This document shows, piece by piece, positions 47,268 through 52,293 of a stretch of DNA of 64,000 bases. The notes under the pieces were generated by a model. The model was not told the DNA's origin. It searched no databases and saw nothing but the letters and a program-made list of their open reading frames with translations. This DNA is from Escherichia coli (GTDB taxonomy: Bacteria > Pseudomonadota > Gammaproteobacteria > Enterobacterales > Enterobacteriaceae). The DNA is taken from the NCBI RefSeq assembly GCF_044324875.1, contig NZ_CP172185.1, one strand, 5' to 3'. Both the position numbers and the translations under genes were made by a program. Within the stretch, counting starts at the first letter, position 1. Every line of letters begins with the position of its first letter.

Positions 47268-48806
47268 ATGGCTTTTGCCTCATTAATTGAACGCCAGCGC
47301 ATTCGCCTGCTGCTGGCGTTATTATTCGGTGCCTGCGGAACGCTGGCCTTCTCTCCTTGCGACGTCTGGCCTGCGGCGATTATTTCGCTGATGGGGCTTC
47401 AGGCGCTGACCTTTAACCGCCGTCCACTCCAGTCTGCCGCTATTGGCTTTTGCTGGGGATTTGGTCTCTTTGGCAGCGGTATTAACTGGGTCTATGTCAG
47501 CATCGCGACTTTTGGCGGAATGCCTGGCCCGGTTAACATCTTCCTGGTGGTGCTGCTGGCGGCGTATTTGTCGCTGTATACCGGACTGTTTGCTGGCGTG
47601 CTGTCGCGTCTGTGGCCGAAAACCACCTGGCTGCGCGTGGCGATTGCCGCCCCTGCTCTCTGGCAAGTGACCGAGTTTCTGCGCGGTTGGGTGCTGACCG
47701 GCTTCCCGTGGTTACAGTTCGGCTATAGCCAGATTGATGGCCCGTTAAAAGGGCTGGCACCGTTAATGGGCGTGGAAGCCATTAACTTCCTGCTGATGAT
47801 GGTTAGTGGCCTGCTGGCACTGGCGTTGGTCAAACGCAACTGGCGTCCGCTGGTGGTGGCCGTCGTGCTGTTCGCTCTTCCCTTCCCGCTGCGTTACATC
47901 CAGTGGTTCACCCCGCAACCGGAGAAAACCATTCAGGTTTCGATGGTTCAGGGCGATATTCCGCAATCACTGAAATGGGACGAAGGCCAGCTTCTTAATA
48001 CGCTGAAGATTTACTACAACGCAACGGCACCGCTGATGGGCAAATCATCGTTGATTATCTGGCCGGAGTCGGCGATAACCGATCTGGAAATTAATCAGCA
48101 ACCGTTCCTCAAAGCACTGGACGGTGAGTTGCGCGATAAAGGTAGCTCGCTGGTCACCGGGATTGTCGACGCGCGTCTCAATAAGCAGAACCGCTACGAT
48201 ACCTACAACACCATCATCACGCTGGGGAAAGGTGCGCCGTACAGCTACGAATCAGCCGATCGCTATAACAAAAACCATCTGGTGCCGTTTGGCGAGTTTG
48301 TCCCGCTGGAGTCGATTCTGCGTCCGTTAGCGCCGTTCTTTGATCTGCCGATGTCGTCGTTCAGCCGTGGGCCATATATCCAGCCACCGCTGTCGGTAAA
48401 CGGTATTGAGCTTACTGCGGCTATTTGCTACGAGATCATTCTCGGCGAGCAAGTGCGTGATAACTTCCGCCCGGATACCGACTACCTGCTGACCATCTCC
48501 AACGATGCGTGGTTTGGTAAATCTATTGGTCCATGGCAACACTTCCAGATGGCGCGAATGCGTGCGCTGGAGCTGGCGCGCCCGCTGTTGCGTAGCACCA
48601 ATAACGGTATTACGGCGGTGATTGGCCCGCAGGGGGAGATTCAGTCGATGATCCCGCAATTCACCCGCGAAGTGTTAACCACTAACGTGACACCGACCAC
48701 CGGACTCACACCATACGCACGTACCGGCAACTGGCCGCTGTGGGTACTGACGGCACTGTTTGGTTTTGCCGCTGTGTTGATGAGTCTGCGAGCACGTAAA
48801 CGTTAA
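47268..48806 (+). CDS. lnt: Apolipoprotein N-acyltransferase
   Basis: 512 aa; N-terminal membrane domain plus nitrilase-like CN-hydrolase domain. Confidence 0.95.
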
Positions 48807-48883
48807 TGTGCCTGATGTATCCGGCATAAACAAAACATACTTTCTCTTTGAGCTGTGGGGCGTGATTATCATGCCCCTTTTTC

Positions 48884-50761
48884 TTACGGTTCAGGGATAC
48901 AAGCCACATCGCCATATTGGGGATGCCGAATAATTGCCTGCGGATCAAGCGAGCGCGTCCTGTCCATTTGGATTAACCCGTTCTTCGCCATAACAAATAT
49001 CTTTCTACCATCCGCTGAAAAACGAAGATGATTAACGTAGCTGGCAGGATAAACGCCAATAATCTGCCCGGCATTAATATTGAGCAGAATGACATAACCT
49101 TGCAGGCCATATGACACCAACGCTAAATACTGACCGTCCGGGCTAATACCCTCAACGGAATAAACGCTCCTGCTACACCATTGCGTCATAATGCTGGCTT
49201 GCTGATCCCCAACTCTTATACGTGAAATCCCCTGGCTGTCGGCAAAAATTACATCCCCGTTTTCAGGTCGAAAACGCATCGCCGATATCGTTCCACGCGC
49301 ATCACTAGCCGGATAGCTTTCTTTTTGATGCGTGATGGTATTGATGCGTACAATGTCACCTCTGACCATACCGGGTATCAACAATGTTTTTTCATCCGGG
49401 GAAAGTGCCATAACCCAGGCGCCTGGTTTACCGCTCGTCCCCGTCCCGTCGTATTTCTCCAGCGGGATATCCGCCACATGCTGATAAGCCACCAGATCAA
49501 TGGCTGACACACTATTACTGGTGCGATTCATCACCCAGGCTTTTGTGCCATCGCGCGAGAGGATAAGGCTGTCAGGATGTGCGCCGGTGGTAATCGACTG
49601 AATAATCTCCCCCGTCGCCACGTTAATGACCGATAACGCATTCGCTTCAAATGAAGTTGCATAAAGCAACGTTTCATCCGGGCTTAACGCCAGCGATCTG
49701 ACGGCCTGATCTTTACAGCCACCACAATGTTTGAGTGACTTTTCTTTCGCTATGGGCGCTGTAAAGGTATGCAGGATTTTCTTTTGTCCGAGGTCGAAAA
49801 CAACAATGCTGTTGGTGTTTTCAATTGCGGCATACAACGTATTACCATCCCGACTGATCGCCATATCATGGATATCGGCAATCTCAGCGAGCAAATCACC
49901 ACTGGCCTGCTCACGACTTACCGGAGCGGATAATGTTTCCCTGAGGGCGTTGCGCTCCTCCACTAACTGCTGCTTTTTTTGTCGTCGCTCTTGTTCAATC
50001 TCCTGCGGATAAAACTCTTCACGCAGGCTGTGCCTGACCAGTAAAACTGATTCATCAATCTGCTGCTGCACAAGCCAGATAGCCCCGGTAAGAAGAAGAC
50101 TGCCCGCAACAATAATCCCGCCTTCCGTAACAAGCCGGTTTTGCCCAGATAAACGCGCACTCAGCCACCCCAACGCACCACCCGCAATCAGGCCGCCAAT
50201 ATGACAAGCATTATCTATTCCTGTTTGCCGGGCACCATACAACAGTGTCAGCGCCACCATACCCAACAGAGAAAATACTCGCCGCTGGTTTTTATGGTAT
50301 GTGCCCGCACCTGAAGCAAGCTGTGTTGCTATCGCAGCGCCAGCAATTCCCATAATTGCCCCGGATGCCCCAACGCTGATGACTATCTGCTCACTTTCGC
50401 GTAACGCATAACAGGCGCTGATTAGCCCACCAAAGACGCCAGAGAATAGCCAGACAATCAGGAGTCGCCATTTCCCCAGTATCCGTTCCGCCACTGCCCC
50501 CACCACCAGGAGTGCAAACATATTCATCAGCAAATGGGGAAAACTACTGTGCAGAAAGACACTGCTCAATAAGCGCCAGGGTTCACCCGACAACGTGAGA
50601 GAAGCAACGTTAGCACCAAGATGGATGAGTGCGGATTGATCGACGTCTTCATAACTCATCCATTGTGCGAGATAACAAAATATCCCAACACAGAGCGCAA
50701 AAAGGATAAGAGTTATTGCGGGTAATTGAACATTTAACGGCTTAACCGAAGATGCAGACAT
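48884..50761 (-). CDS. Rhomboid-family intramembrane serine protease fused to a C-terminal YVTN/WD40-like beta-propeller (625 aa)
   Basis: N-terminal polytopic region with rhomboid motifs GASGAIMG (Ser) and HIGGLIAG (His); linker rich in E/R/Q; C-terminal repeats SRDGNTLY, SPDETLLYA, SRDGTKAWV, SPDEKTLLI, SPDGQYLAL, SADGRKIFV. Confidence 0.75.
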   Translation of the reverse strand: MSASSVKPLNVQLPAITLILFALCVGIFCYLAQWMSYEDVDQSALIHLGANVASLTLSGEPWRLLSSVFLHSSFPHLLMNMFALLVVGAVAERILGKWRLLIVWLFSGVFGGLISACYALRESEQIVISVGASGAIMGIAGAAIATQLASGAGTYHKNQRRVFSLLGMVALTLLYGARQTGIDNACHIGGLIAGGALGWLSARLSGQNRLVTEGGIIVAGSLLLTGAIWLVQQQIDESVLLVRHSLREEFYPQEIEQERRQKKQQLVEERNALRETLSAPVSREQASGDLLAEIADIHDMAISRDGNTLYAAIENTNSIVVFDLGQKKILHTFTAPIAKEKSLKHCGGCKDQAVRSLALSPDETLLYATSFEANALSVINVATGEIIQSITTGAHPDSLILSRDGTKAWVMNRTSNSVSAIDLVAYQHVADIPLEKYDGTGTSGKPGAWVMALSPDEKTLLIPGMVRGDIVRINTITHQKESYPASDARGTISAMRFRPENGDVIFADSQGISRIRVGDQQASIMTQWCSRSVYSVEGISPDGQYLALVSYGLQGYVILLNINAGQIIGVYPASYVNHLRFSADGRKIFVMAKNGLIQMDRTRSLDPQAIIRHPQYGDVACIPEP

Positions 50762-51215
50762 GAGGTAATTCTTCCTTGAAAAGACAGGTAAAAAGCATTT
50801 TTCTCGTGTGCAGTTACCATCCCGGCAAACGTCCCATACCGAAAAGTTAACCCTGTCCGAAATATGACTTTTTCAGCCTGAAATTACAATCGTAATTAAT
50901 TCACCCCTAACTATTTTTTGGCATGTAAGTTGCTTTAATTACTGTGTAAGCAATGAAATCAGCCGCAACGAAACCGGGTTGCACCACCACAAATCAACGG
51001 TAGCGCCAAAAAGGTGCGGTTTAAGAATTTTGCTTCGGAATGGTGCGGCGCATCTCGCAAAAACAAACAATAAAACAGCAATATCTTTACATTTAGCCAA
51101 ACTAAATGTTACCTAACAAGCACAACACTGCACAATAAAGTTGCAGATGATAACAACACAAACACTCACAACGGGTATCCATGCGTTCTTAACGCAGAAG
51201 ATAAAGGAGTTGGAT

Positions 51216-52124
51216 ATGCAATTACGTAAACCTGCCACAGCAATCCTGGCCCTGGCGCTTTCCGCAGGACTGGCACAGGCAGATGACGCCGCCCCGGCAG
51301 CGGGCAGTACGCTGGACAAAATCGCCAAAAACGGTGTGATTGTCGTCGGTCACCGTGAATCTTCAGTACCTTTCTCTTATTACGACAATCAGCAAAAAGT
51401 GGTGGGTTACTCGCAGGATTACTCCAACGCCATTGTTGAAGCAGTGAAAAAGAAACTCAACAAACCGGACTTGCAGGTGAAACTGATTCCGATCACCTCA
51501 CAAAACCGTATTCCTCTGCTGCAAAACGGCACTTTCGATTTTGAATGTGGTTCTACCACCAATAACGTCGAACGCCAGAAACAGGCGGCTTTCTCTGACA
51601 CTATTTTCGTGGTCGGTACGCGCCTGCTGACCAAAAAGGGCGGCGATATCAAAGATTTTGCCGACCTGAAAGGCAAAGCCGTAGTCGTCACTTCCGGCAC
51701 TACCTCTGAAGTTTTGCTCAACAAATTGAATGAAGAGCAAAAAATGAATATGCGCATCATCAGCGCCAAAGATCACGGTGACTCTTTCCGCACCCTGGAA
51801 AGCGGTCGTGCTGTTGCCTTTATGATGGATGACGCTCTGCTGGCAGGTGAACGTGCGAAAGCGAAGAAACCGGACAACTGGGAAATCGTCGGCAAGCCGC
51901 AGTCTCAGGAAGCCTACGGTTGTATGTTGCGTAAAGATGATCCGCAGTTCAAAAAGCTGATGGATGACACCATCGCGCAGGTGCAGACCTCCGGTGAAGC
52001 GGAAAAATGGTTTGATAAGTGGTTCAAAAATCCCATTCCGCCGAAAAACCTGAACATGAATTTCGAGCTGTCAGACGAAATGAAAGCACTGTTCAAAGAA
52101 CCGAATGATAAGGCACTGAACTAA
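51216..52124 (+). CDS. gltI: Glutamate/aspartate ABC transporter periplasmic binding protein
   Basis: ORF 51141..52124; start MQLRKPATAILALALSAGLAQA (signal peptide) gives 302 aa. Confidence 0.9.
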   Translation: MQLRKPATAILALALSAGLAQADDAAPAAGSTLDKIAKNGVIVVGHRESSVPFSYYDNQQKVVGYSQDYSNAIVEAVKKKLNKPDLQVKLIPITSQNRIPLLQNGTFDFECGSTTNNVERQKQAAFSDTIFVVGTRLLTKKGGDIKDFADLKGKAVVVTSGTTSEVLLNKLNEEQKMNMRIISAKDHGDSFRTLESGRAVAFMMDDALLAGERAKAKKPDNWEIVGKPQSQEAYGCMLRKDDPQFKKLMDDTIAQVQTSGEAEKWFDKWFKNPIPPKNLNMNFELSDEMKALFKEPNDKALN

Positions 52125-52281
52125 TTACAAGAACCAGGGGCGGAAATTCCAGCCCTCTCGATTGTTACGTAGCACGGACAGACTATACGCCTGATGGTCG
52201 TTCCCCATCGGGCCTGAAAACCGCAATACGCTGGGTAACAATCTTCGAGGGTAGCAGTTAACGCTGCTACCCTCTTTTTTC
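52125..52281 (+). ncRNA. sroC: Candidate sRNA SroC, processed from the gltI-gltJ intergenic region
   Basis: Intergenic stretch ending in hairpin gagggtagcagttaacgctgctaccctc plus ttttttc (52248-52281); position matches where SroC is described. Confidence 0.45.
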
Positions 52282-52293
52282 TGGAGTAGATTT

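Follow-up and report, generated by a model that had tools for sequence, protein, structure and literature searches.

A Rhom7-type rhomboid protease with a predicted periplasmic beta-propeller at the gltI-lnt locus of Escherichia coli 042

Identification of the gene as an ortholog of Rhom7

The gene located between gltI and lnt in the window, the 64,000-nucleotide stretch of DNA that was analysed, is the positional ortholog of Shigella sonnei Rhom7 (SSON_0610, UniProt Q3Z4D6), and its product is very probably an inner-membrane protease with a 6+1 arrangement of transmembrane (TM) helices that would, by orthology, cleave orphan subunits and that bears a periplasmic propeller module. As the gene matches the characterised Rhom7 it counts as already known, the protein family, the activity and the ortholog group all having been described. 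What is new relative to the Rhom7 literature is the recognition of the C-terminal domain as a predicted seven-bladed propeller which, to judge from substitution rates, is under purifying selection; to this may be added the ancestral locus and fast evolution of the gene, its absence from approximately 40% of genomes, a poly-A frameshift allele in the linker, and the position of IS5.

The window matches E. coli 042 at 100% identity, and the coding sequence (48884..50761, minus strand) is complete, running from an ATG start through 625 aa to a stop codon. It corresponds to EC042_RS03565 / WP_001276739.1, named in RefSeq as "rhomboid family intramembrane serine protease", and the 625-aa reading frame given in a preliminary description of this DNA was confirmed as both intact and annotated. 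The gene is convergent with lnt and divergent from gltI. Direct reading of the sequence located a Shine-Dalgarno-like AAGGAAG (50771..50777, minus strand) 9 nt 5' of the ATG, and the lnt terminator, a G+C-rich hairpin plus T-run (48857..48877, plus strand), is separated by 6 nt from the rhomboid stop codon. On the strand of the gene, no sigma-70-like promoter emerged from a consensus scan of the upstream spacer, a result that is uninformative rather than negative. An Rfam scan of 44-55 kb gave sroC as its sole match, unrelated to the rhomboid gene, and a PADLOC scan for a defence role returned 0 families at E<=0.01.

Assignment to the Rhom7 group was supported by full-length identity, residue numbering and locus alike. 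The S. sonnei proteins (624-625 aa) are 93-94% identical to that of the window at 100% coverage, the catalytic residues carry the same numbers (Ser133 and His187), and the S. sonnei contig presents the same gene order as the window, gltL-K-J-I, rhomboid, lnt, corC, ybeY, ybeZ. The two also share the gltI-X-lnt locus, seven predicted TM domains (TMDs) and a large C-terminal domain, the last two features of the group being found here by prediction (an AlphaFold2 (AF2) helix at 209-233, and charge bias) and the C-terminal domain being placed outside the cytoplasm. They differ in host, S. sonnei there and E. coli 042 here, and in approximately 6% of residues.

Rhom7 was established as an active protease by Liu et al. 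(EMBO J 2020; PMC7232013), the S133A and H187A variants of which no longer cleaved the TatA-TMD substrate. When expressed from a plasmid or overexpressed, the enzyme cut the TatA TMD, orphan HybA, the HybO TMD, and FdnH without FdnI; at native levels there was no detectable cleavage of HybA or FdnH, and a glpG rhom7 double mutant exhibited no robust phenotype (PMC7232013). The activity data all derive from the S. sonnei ortholog, and by orthology with that 93-94% identical protein the 042 enzyme would be expected to effect Ser/His-dependent cleavage of TM substrates. The C-terminal domain is not named as a beta-propeller in the Rhom7 paper, the word 'propeller' occurring 0 times in its text (PMC7232013), and a literature search combining rhomboids with beta-propellers or YVTN yielded nothing relevant.

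The rhomboid catalytic core

The six-TM catalytic core occupies aa 1-205 (50147..50761, minus strand), as delimited by Pfam, phmmer and AF2 helices. Pfam Rhomboid PF01694 spans residues 59-201 (E=4.2e-29, 102 bits), phmmer aligned residues 13-205 with the H. influenzae GlpG structure 2nr9 (E=1.7e-10), and six predicted helices (15-32, 74-95, 97-122, 131-149, 152-179 and 182-203) precede TM7, in keeping with the six-TM core fold. Across 19 homologs, extending down to 25% identity, W62, R63, H76, N80, G131, A132, S133, G134, H187, G189, G190 and G194 proved invariant. These residues comprise the WR motif of the L1 loop (W62, R63; 50573..50578), the HxxxN motif of TM2 (H76...N80; 50522..50536), the catalytic serine within G131-A-S-G134 of TM4 (Ser133 codon, 50363..50365), and the catalytic histidine within HIGGLIAG of TM6 together with G190/G194 (His187 codon, 50201..50203), all on the minus strand; replacement of either catalytic residue inactivates S. 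sonnei Rhom7 (PMC7232013). The profile match, the GxSG serine in TM4, the TM6 histidine with GxxxG, and the HxxxN and WR motifs place the protein in the rhomboid family (MEROPS S54 / PF01694), and the GASGAIMG and HIGGLIAG motifs previously singled out as catalytic in type were borne out as harbouring residues 133 and 187 respectively.

Seventh helix, linker and propeller

Beyond the core, a seventh TM helix (aa 209-233; 50063..50137, minus strand) was indicated by an AF2 helix, by the positive-inside count, and by the seven TMDs assigned by Phobius in PMC7232013. It is followed by a helical E/R/Q-rich linker (aa 234-288; 49898..50062, minus strand) with helices at 237-250 and 253-276, residues 236-288 of which include E 10, R 7 and Q 6. 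Within this linker an A7 tract (T7 on the plus strand; 49974..49980, minus strand) at approximately codons 261-263 constitutes a -1 frameshift site, at which the gene is split in KO11FL and in a widespread allele; the frameshifted alleles retain an intact rhomboid ORF of 239-265 aa.

The linker leads into a seven-bladed YVTN-type beta-propeller (aa 289-600; 48962..49897, minus strand), predicted to be periplasmic, and thence to a C-terminal tail (aa 601-625; 48887..48961, minus strand) containing Cys621. Seven S/F-[PRA]-[DE]-[GEN] repeats, at residues 303, 360, 402, 454, 498, 540 and 582, match the seven blades of the AlphaFold model, which consists of seven helices and seven four-stranded blades and has a pTM of 0.59, the inter-domain arrangement being uncertain. 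The YVTN repeat model TIGR02276 scored 54.4 bits (cutoff 27.85), and this repeat score combined with a closed multi-blade fold (top Foldseek match 1l0q, E=1e-17) identifies the propeller as of the YVTN type; fold searches otherwise retrieved generic seven-bladed propellers only and gave no functional clue. The architecture originally proposed, a rhomboid-like N-terminus joined by a charged linker to a C-terminal beta-propeller, was thereby upheld by Pfam, TIGR02276, homolog alignment, the AlphaFold model and fold searches.

The predicted cytoplasmic loops contain 9 K/R and 0 D/E, the predicted periplasmic loops 2 K/R and 7 D/E, and it is because of this charge distribution together with the TM count that the propeller is predicted to be periplasmic. 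Four cysteines occur in the C-terminal region. Nearly all homologs have C529, and C621 is kept among the enterobacterial ones, a pattern that fits an oxidising compartment.

Comparison with related systems

Among characterised rhomboids, AarA of Providencia stuartii shares 30% identity with Rhom7, which can cut the TMD of the AarA substrate TatA (PMC7232013). Both are rhomboids without the N-terminal cytoplasmic domain of GlpG, but a physiological substrate is established for AarA and, at native expression, none for Rhom7. Among the matches listed, a rhomboid locus of Providencia vermicola aligned with residues 8-197 at 35% identity; the match ends at residue 197, and nothing equivalent to the long linker and propeller was seen.

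The nearest non-propeller relatives retrieved by protein search were GluP-named TPR fusions, with 38-44% identity across the core. The Bacillus subtilis YqgP/GluP type resembles the present protein in combining a 6+1 TM core with an extracytoplasmic repeat domain, and in a role in membrane-protein quality control, but its repeat domain is of the TPR type rather than a propeller; YqgP carries an additional cytosolic domain at its N-terminus. Membership of this type was rejected, there being no TPR Pfam match and only ~14 residues ahead of TM1, with the 6+1 layout as the common feature. E. coli GlpG shares the fold and the catalytic motifs but has six TMs, an N-terminal cytoplasmic domain and no periplasmic domain, and GlpG identity was likewise discarded on scores of 40.9 bits (TIGR04239) and 37.5 bits (NF008155) against cutoffs of 250 and 335, as was rhombosortase (TIGR03902; 46.4 bits, cutoff 84).

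For the C-terminal domain, the fold and repeat signature are those of YVTN propellers such as an archaeal S-layer protein (1l0q), E. coli periplasmic YncE (3vgz) and hydrazine synthase beta (5c2v_B), but identities are only 14-21% and the propeller is here tethered to a membrane protease; YncE itself (NF052280) was excluded at 32 bits against an equivalog cutoff of 400. The DsbI proteins of Campylobacter and Helicobacter join a DsbB-like polytopic inner-membrane enzyme to a C-terminal periplasmic beta-propeller. The resemblance is one of architecture, the catalytic domain of DsbI being unrelated, and the corresponding model NF050065 gave a faint, non-significant match (E=0.09) that serves as a lead only.

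Proposed mechanism and role of the propeller

In the mechanism envisaged, a short N-terminus would lie in the cytoplasm and six TM helices would build the rhomboid core, in which the Ser133 (TM4)/His187 (TM6) dyad would be backed by H76/N80 of TM2 and the W62-R63 L1 loop. TM7 would then carry the chain to the periplasm, where a helical linker of ~50 aa would be succeeded by the seven-bladed YVTN-type propeller. By orthology, the enzyme would cut inside the TM segments of single-pass proteins whose N-terminus is periplasmic and which contain a residue that destabilises the helix. Its targets would include Fe-S subunits left partner-less, HybA and FdnH for example, and cleavage would license their onward degradation. 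The propeller would stand outside this catalytic machinery as a periplasmic module, most likely one for docking or regulation that may restrict or target the protease in vivo.

A stricter alternative, in line with the coupling of capture to proteolysis suggested in the preliminary description, would make the propeller an obligatory device for substrate capture, handing periplasmic or membrane substrates to the active site so that proteolysis depends upon it. The PVSxExAxG strand that opens the propeller, and the propeller itself, are kept in every full-length homolog, even those only 25% identical, the dN/dS of the propeller is ~0.16, seven-bladed propellers are typical protein-binding platforms, and the known Rhom7 substrates carry large periplasmic Fe-S domains (PMC7232013), all of which accords with capture. 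However, the artificial TatA-TMD substrate is still cleaved by Rhom7 when its C-terminal domain is deleted, alone or together with TM7 (PMC7232013), the linker-frameshifted alleles that preserve the rhomboid ORF are widespread, and there is no known binding partner. Nor did the contexts of distant full-length homologs (Budvicia, Uliginosibacterium, Trinickia, a MAG and Burkholderia), which are unrelated, disclose any shared neighbour gene. Obligatory capture is consequently regarded as doubtful. Since the propeller is dispensable for cleavage of the artificial substrate, the argument for a targeting role in the docking or regulatory module comes from conservation alone.

A more specific form of the docking or regulatory reading can be advanced only tentatively. 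According to this, the propeller would be selected and functional, gating or targeting Rhom7 either by sensing a ligand in the periplasm or by binding the ferredoxin-like Fe-S domains that orphan subunits exported through Tat expose there, and the A7/A8 tract of the linker might serve as a switch flipped repeatedly by mutation, which disconnects the propeller and leaves, in a large E. coli lineage, a core-only protease of altered specificity.

Few physiological substrates are known for bacterial rhomboids, and Rhom7 is among the handful tied to membrane-protein quality control. Handles on the part played by extramembrane domains in rhomboid specificity are offered by intact orthologs in many E. 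coli, including the pathogen 042, by a C-terminal domain that is a predicted periplasmic seven-bladed propeller apparently under purifying selection, and by the common natural alleles that lack the gene or are truncated ahead of the propeller. Such handles leave its classification unchanged.

Selection and natural loss

At least 80% of a 2.6-kb query around the gene was present in 3231 of the 5426 complete E. coli genomes, the remaining ~40% being without the gene; this, together with the widespread frameshifted allele, suggests that any benefit conferred by the gene is conditional or small. The further proposition that it is a decaying and functionally irrelevant remnant, heading to loss in E. 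coli, could also draw upon the KO11FL frameshift, upon the propeller-only ORFs of 326 aa present on more than 700 contigs, upon an additional nonsense codon at locus L093, upon a dN/dS 4-8x that of gltI and lnt, and upon the low native expression and lack of phenotype reported for S. sonnei (PMC7232013). By way of contrast, dN/dS for the whole gene (0.16-0.20, against 0.02-0.06 for gltI and lnt) was far under neutrality in 6/6 pairwise comparisons and in each domain, the ORF of 625 aa was intact in every intact allele compared (042, AZ159, 05_3471 and 400660), in S. sonnei and in E. fergusonii, and the S. sonnei protein is enzymatically active (PMC7232013). Klebsiella orthologs (638-645 aa) are similarly intact at the same locus, with all catalytic residues invariant. 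Irrelevance is on this evidence improbable. Disruption of the ORF in close relatives, which the preliminary description had named as counting against its proposal, was encountered in KO11FL and the widespread allele, but most alleles are intact with a dN/dS of about 0.2.

Distribution and origin of the locus

Beyond E. coli, the gene was detected in S. sonnei, S. flexneri, S. boydii, E. fergusonii and several Klebsiella species. All the loci inspected, namely those of S. sonnei, K. aerogenes and a contig nearest the Klebsiella oxytoca group by protein, had it flanked by gltI and lnt. The order gltLKJI-rhomboid-lnt-corC-ybeY-ybeZ was again found in K. aerogenes and in the contig nearest the K. 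oxytoca group, where the rhomboid protein shares 52-55% identity with that of E. coli and the neighbouring proteins 83-96%. Given this shared gene order, and a dS resembling that of its neighbours, the gene is an ancestral occupant of the gltI-lnt locus; it is also fast-evolving, dispensable, and often lost or truncated. A recent horizontal insertion, as a genomic islet between lnt and gltI, is highly improbable, for while the gene is polymorphic in its presence through a clean 2.2-kb versus 155-bp replacement, is patchy outside the Enterobacteriaceae among the matches listed (Budvicia, Pseudoduganella, Trinickia and Uliginosibacterium, 26-32% identity) and has an upstream spacer of low G+C (about 41%), its position and orientation are the same in K. 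aerogenes and in the contig nearest the K. oxytoca group, synonymous divergence among its E. coli alleles (dS 0.11-0.19) is on a par with that of the flanking genes (0.07-0.15 for most pairs), its own G+C (~0.47-0.53) is near that of its neighbours, and no integrase, tRNA or IS adjoins it in the 042 annotation.

The GTDB genome scan yielded at least 600 stretches, and Salmonella and Citrobacter, with others, were not among the matches listed, which is not to be read as true absence. The suggestion that the architecture is unusual for enterobacteria therefore holds in part: among the matches listed the fusion is rare and patchy beyond E. coli, Shigella, E. fergusonii and Klebsiella, but the gene is present in the majority of complete E. 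coli genomes.

The segment variably present among E. coli strains extends over 48801..50971, and gene-less strains contain ~155 bp of unrelated REP-like sequence instead; comparison of this filler with the 042 spacer, for remnants or flanking repeats that might explain a deletion, gave only weak and unconvincing similarity. In K-12, to which the preliminary description ascribed an IS5 at this position instead of the gene, the gene is indeed absent and an IS5 does lie between lnt and gltI. Its location, however, corresponds to ~51109-51116 of the window, so that it adjoins the missing segment rather than replacing it, and many strains are without both the gene and IS5.

Identity and Locus of the Rhomboid Gene

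The gene at window 48884-50761 (- strand), placed between lnt and gltI in a preliminary description made from sequence alone, is indeed an unbroken reading frame, 625 codons long from its ATG, and sequence reading located a Shine-Dalgarno-like AAGGAAG 9 nt 5' of that codon on the same strand. It is convergent with lnt (47268-48806, + strand) and divergent from gltI (+ strand, RefSeq start equivalent to 51216). The 2.6 kb segment containing it (48600-51200) matched E. coli 042 (NC_017626.1) at 100% identity; in that genome the CDS is EC042_RS03565 / WP_001276739.1 under the RefSeq name "rhomboid family intramembrane serine protease". No consensus sigma-70 site was found on the rhomboid strand when the upstream spacer was scanned.

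S. sonnei has two rhomboids described by Liu et al. (EMBO J 2020; PMC7232013), GlpG and Rhom7 (SSON_0610). The paper gives Rhom7 catalytic residues Ser133 and His187, seven predicted TMDs and a domain at the C-terminus; the protein is listed in a 2025 review as UniProt Q3Z4D6. An artificial substrate with the P. stuartii TatA TMD was cut by Rhom7, an activity abolished by S133A and by H187A, and the plasmid-expressed enzyme also cut the TMDs of HybO and of HybA, HybA at full length and, when its partner FdnI was absent, FdnH (PMC7232013). Cleavage required a conserved TM proline, licensed further degradation and was undetectable at native Rhom7 levels, and a robust phenotype was absent in a double glpG rhom7 mutant (PMC7232013).

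The window protein aligned over its full length with S. sonnei proteins at 93-94% identity, the dyad numbering Ser133/His187 is common to it and to published Rhom7, and the S. sonnei gene order gltLKJI / rhomboid / lnt-corC-ybeY-ybeZ matches that of the window. Taken together, these data indicate that the window protein is the E. coli ortholog of Rhom7, and that the gene is to be regarded as one already known: it is annotated in RefSeq, and synteny as well as sequence makes it the ortholog of an enzyme studied by experiment.

Catalytic Core

A Pfam Rhomboid domain spanned residues 59-201 (E = 4.2e-29), with GASGAIMG placing the serine at 133 and HIGGLIAG the histidine at 187, while matches to the GlpG, rhombosortase and YncE NCBIfam models were all sub-threshold. 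Alignment of 19 full-length homologs, with identity down to 25%, established as invariant W62-R63 of the L1 loop, H76 and N80 of TM2, G131-A-S133-G134 of TM4, and H187 and G189/G190/G194 of TM6. The H. influenzae GlpG structure 2nr9 aligned to the N-terminal 234 residues (E = 1.7e-10). The 042 protein carries the full rhomboid catalytic motif set, and the Pfam match and invariant motifs uphold the rhomboid domain and dyad motifs initially proposed.

Two rare S. sonnei variants carried small in-frame deletions: P0014 is one residue short at 179/180, within the TM5-TM6 loop, and in P0016 TM6 ends without the five residues LGWLS, a loss that could harm enzyme function.

Topology and the C-Terminal Propeller

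An AlphaFold2 model generated from the 19-homolog alignment (mean pLDDT 79.7, pTM 0.59) contained seven long helices (15-32, 74-95, 97-122, 131-149, 152-179, 182-203 and 209-233), two linker helices (237-250 and 253-276), and 27 beta-strands within 289-600 arranged as seven four-stranded blades. The blades are marked by seven S/F-[PRA]-[DE]-[GEN] repeats (residues 303, 360, 402, 454, 498, 540 and 582), and the NCBIfam YVTN beta-propeller repeat scored 54.4 bits against a cutoff of 27.85, bearing out the YVTN-like propeller of the preliminary description. Predicted cytoplasmic loops held nine Lys/Arg and no Asp/Glu, and predicted periplasmic loops two and seven respectively; with seven TM helices, this bias would place linker and propeller in the periplasm. 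Model and sequence together argue for a Rhom7-type 6+1 TM topology, with a C-terminal region made up of a helical linker and then a seven-bladed propeller, both periplasmic. Of the four cysteines in that region (346, 349, 529 and 621), C529 is almost invariant and C621 is kept among enterobacterial homologs, a pattern that would fit an oxidising compartment.

The closest propeller-less rhomboid cores were those of GluP-like proteins, which share the 6+1 layout with Rhom7 but carry a C-terminal TPR domain, rather than a propeller, as the extracytoplasmic repeat domain. No discussion of a rhomboid-YVTN fusion was found in the open-access literature, and the word "propeller" is absent from PMC7232013. 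The seven-bladed label for the C-terminal domain of Rhom7 is a small addition to the published description, the propeller being already present in database annotation (Pfam, and source names, for example "YVTN family beta-propeller protein").

By extension from results shown for the S. sonnei ortholog, the enzyme would perform a Ser133/His187-dependent intramembrane cut of single-pass TM segments with helix-destabilising residues, with orphan HybA and FdnH as substrates under overexpression, and cleavage would license further degradation of the substrate. The propeller would act as a periplasmic docking or regulatory module and would not be needed for catalysis. That it is an obligatory substrate-capture device is conceivable but doubtful, in view of the published result of deleting the C-terminal domain (PMC7232013).

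Presence, Absence and Frameshifted Alleles

At least 80% of the 2.6 kb query was present in 3231 of 5426 complete E. coli genomes, the others matching its flanks only. In C288 and other gene-less strains, approximately 155 bp of unrelated REP-like sequence replaces window 48801-50971 (2.17 kb), and alignment of gene-less with gene-bearing loci gave no sign of how this segment was lost. K-12 has the same gene-less configuration plus an IS5, as stated in the preliminary description, but the insertion lies at the equivalent of window ~51109-51116, some 100 bp upstream of gltI, and therefore adjoins the missing segment instead of replacing the gene.

The rhomboid gene of KO11FL, a derivative of E. 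coli W, is flagged as frameshifted in RefSeq, the lesion being one A lost from a homopolymer in the linker. Comparison of loci L088, L089, L092 and L093 indicated that this tract is A7 in strain 042 (window 49974-49980, - strand; codons ~261-263) and A8 in strain 05_3471, whose related allele is intact, while KO11FL and two independent assemblies (L092 and L093) have A7 in an 05_3471-type A8 background, leading to a stop at codon 266. This -1 frameshift splits the gene into a 239-265 aa ORF, which retains the rhomboid core and TM7 with a portion of the linker, and a second, propeller-only ORF of 326 aa. Two such 326-aa ORFs (P0149 and P0150) occurred in >700 contigs, P0150 in 412 index blocks, and the frameshifted allele is widespread. 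An extra nonsense codon at 240 in L093 suggests decay after the frameshift. Disruption in close relatives, a prospect raised against the original reading, is consequently real for part of the species (KO11FL and the widespread allele), but the domain assignment stands.

Residual interest attaches to what the periplasmic propeller does, to the presence/absence polymorphism and to the frameshift allele of the poly-A tract; together these offer natural material for testing the propeller's role.

Evolution and Selection

The 90%-identity protein cluster also had members from E. fergusonii, S. flexneri and S. boydii, and orthologs at 50-57% identity were present in Klebsiella aerogenes, K. huaxiensis, K. 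oxytoca and K. michiganensis. The gltI-lnt slot also holds the gene in K. aerogenes and in one contig whose protein is nearest the oxytoca group. Between E. coli and Klebsiella (L085 and L086) the rhomboid protein was 52-55% identical and eight syntenic neighbours 83-96%, TM7 being its least conserved part (34-38%). Beyond Enterobacteriaceae, full-length homologs among the matches listed were scattered, at 26-32% identity (Budvicia aquatica, Pseudoduganella, Uliginosibacterium, Trinickia and Paraburkholderia/Burkholderia), in gene neighbourhoods unrelated to one another.

Within E. coli, dN/dS was 0.16-0.20 for the whole rhomboid gene, 0.16-0.36 for the core (aa 1-205), 0.15-0.19 for the propeller (aa 289-625) and 0.02-0.06 for gltI and lnt, so that core and propeller alike are under purifying selection, with weaker constraint than on the neighbours. 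The linker-propeller region is kept intact by selection. With dN/dS well under 1 and the gene conserved into Klebsiella, a decaying remnant is an improbable description; the gene may rather be conditionally useful, which would account for its frequent loss, low native expression and missing consensus sigma-70 site. The conserved slot in Klebsiella, and a dS alike across the rhomboid gene, gltI and lnt, mark the gene as a long-standing occupant of this locus that has been passed on vertically, and such synteny and matching dS render recent horizontal acquisition highly implausible.

Neighbouring Features

The convergent lnt and rhomboid genes have a common spacer of 77 nt, within which a G+C-rich hairpin plus T-run (window 48857-48877, + strand), 6 nt from the rhomboid stop codon, resembles an lnt terminator; on the rhomboid strand the hairpin is not followed by a T-run. 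For gltI, the mechanical ORF list gave a TTG start at 51141 (327 aa, a 5' extension of 51141-51215) and RefSeq an ATG equivalent to 51216 (302 aa), other genomes agreeing with the shorter form. The gltI-gltJ spacer contains the sroC sRNA (window 52120-52282, + strand; a full-length match to Rfam RF00369 at 174.8 bits), where it is expected in E. coli.
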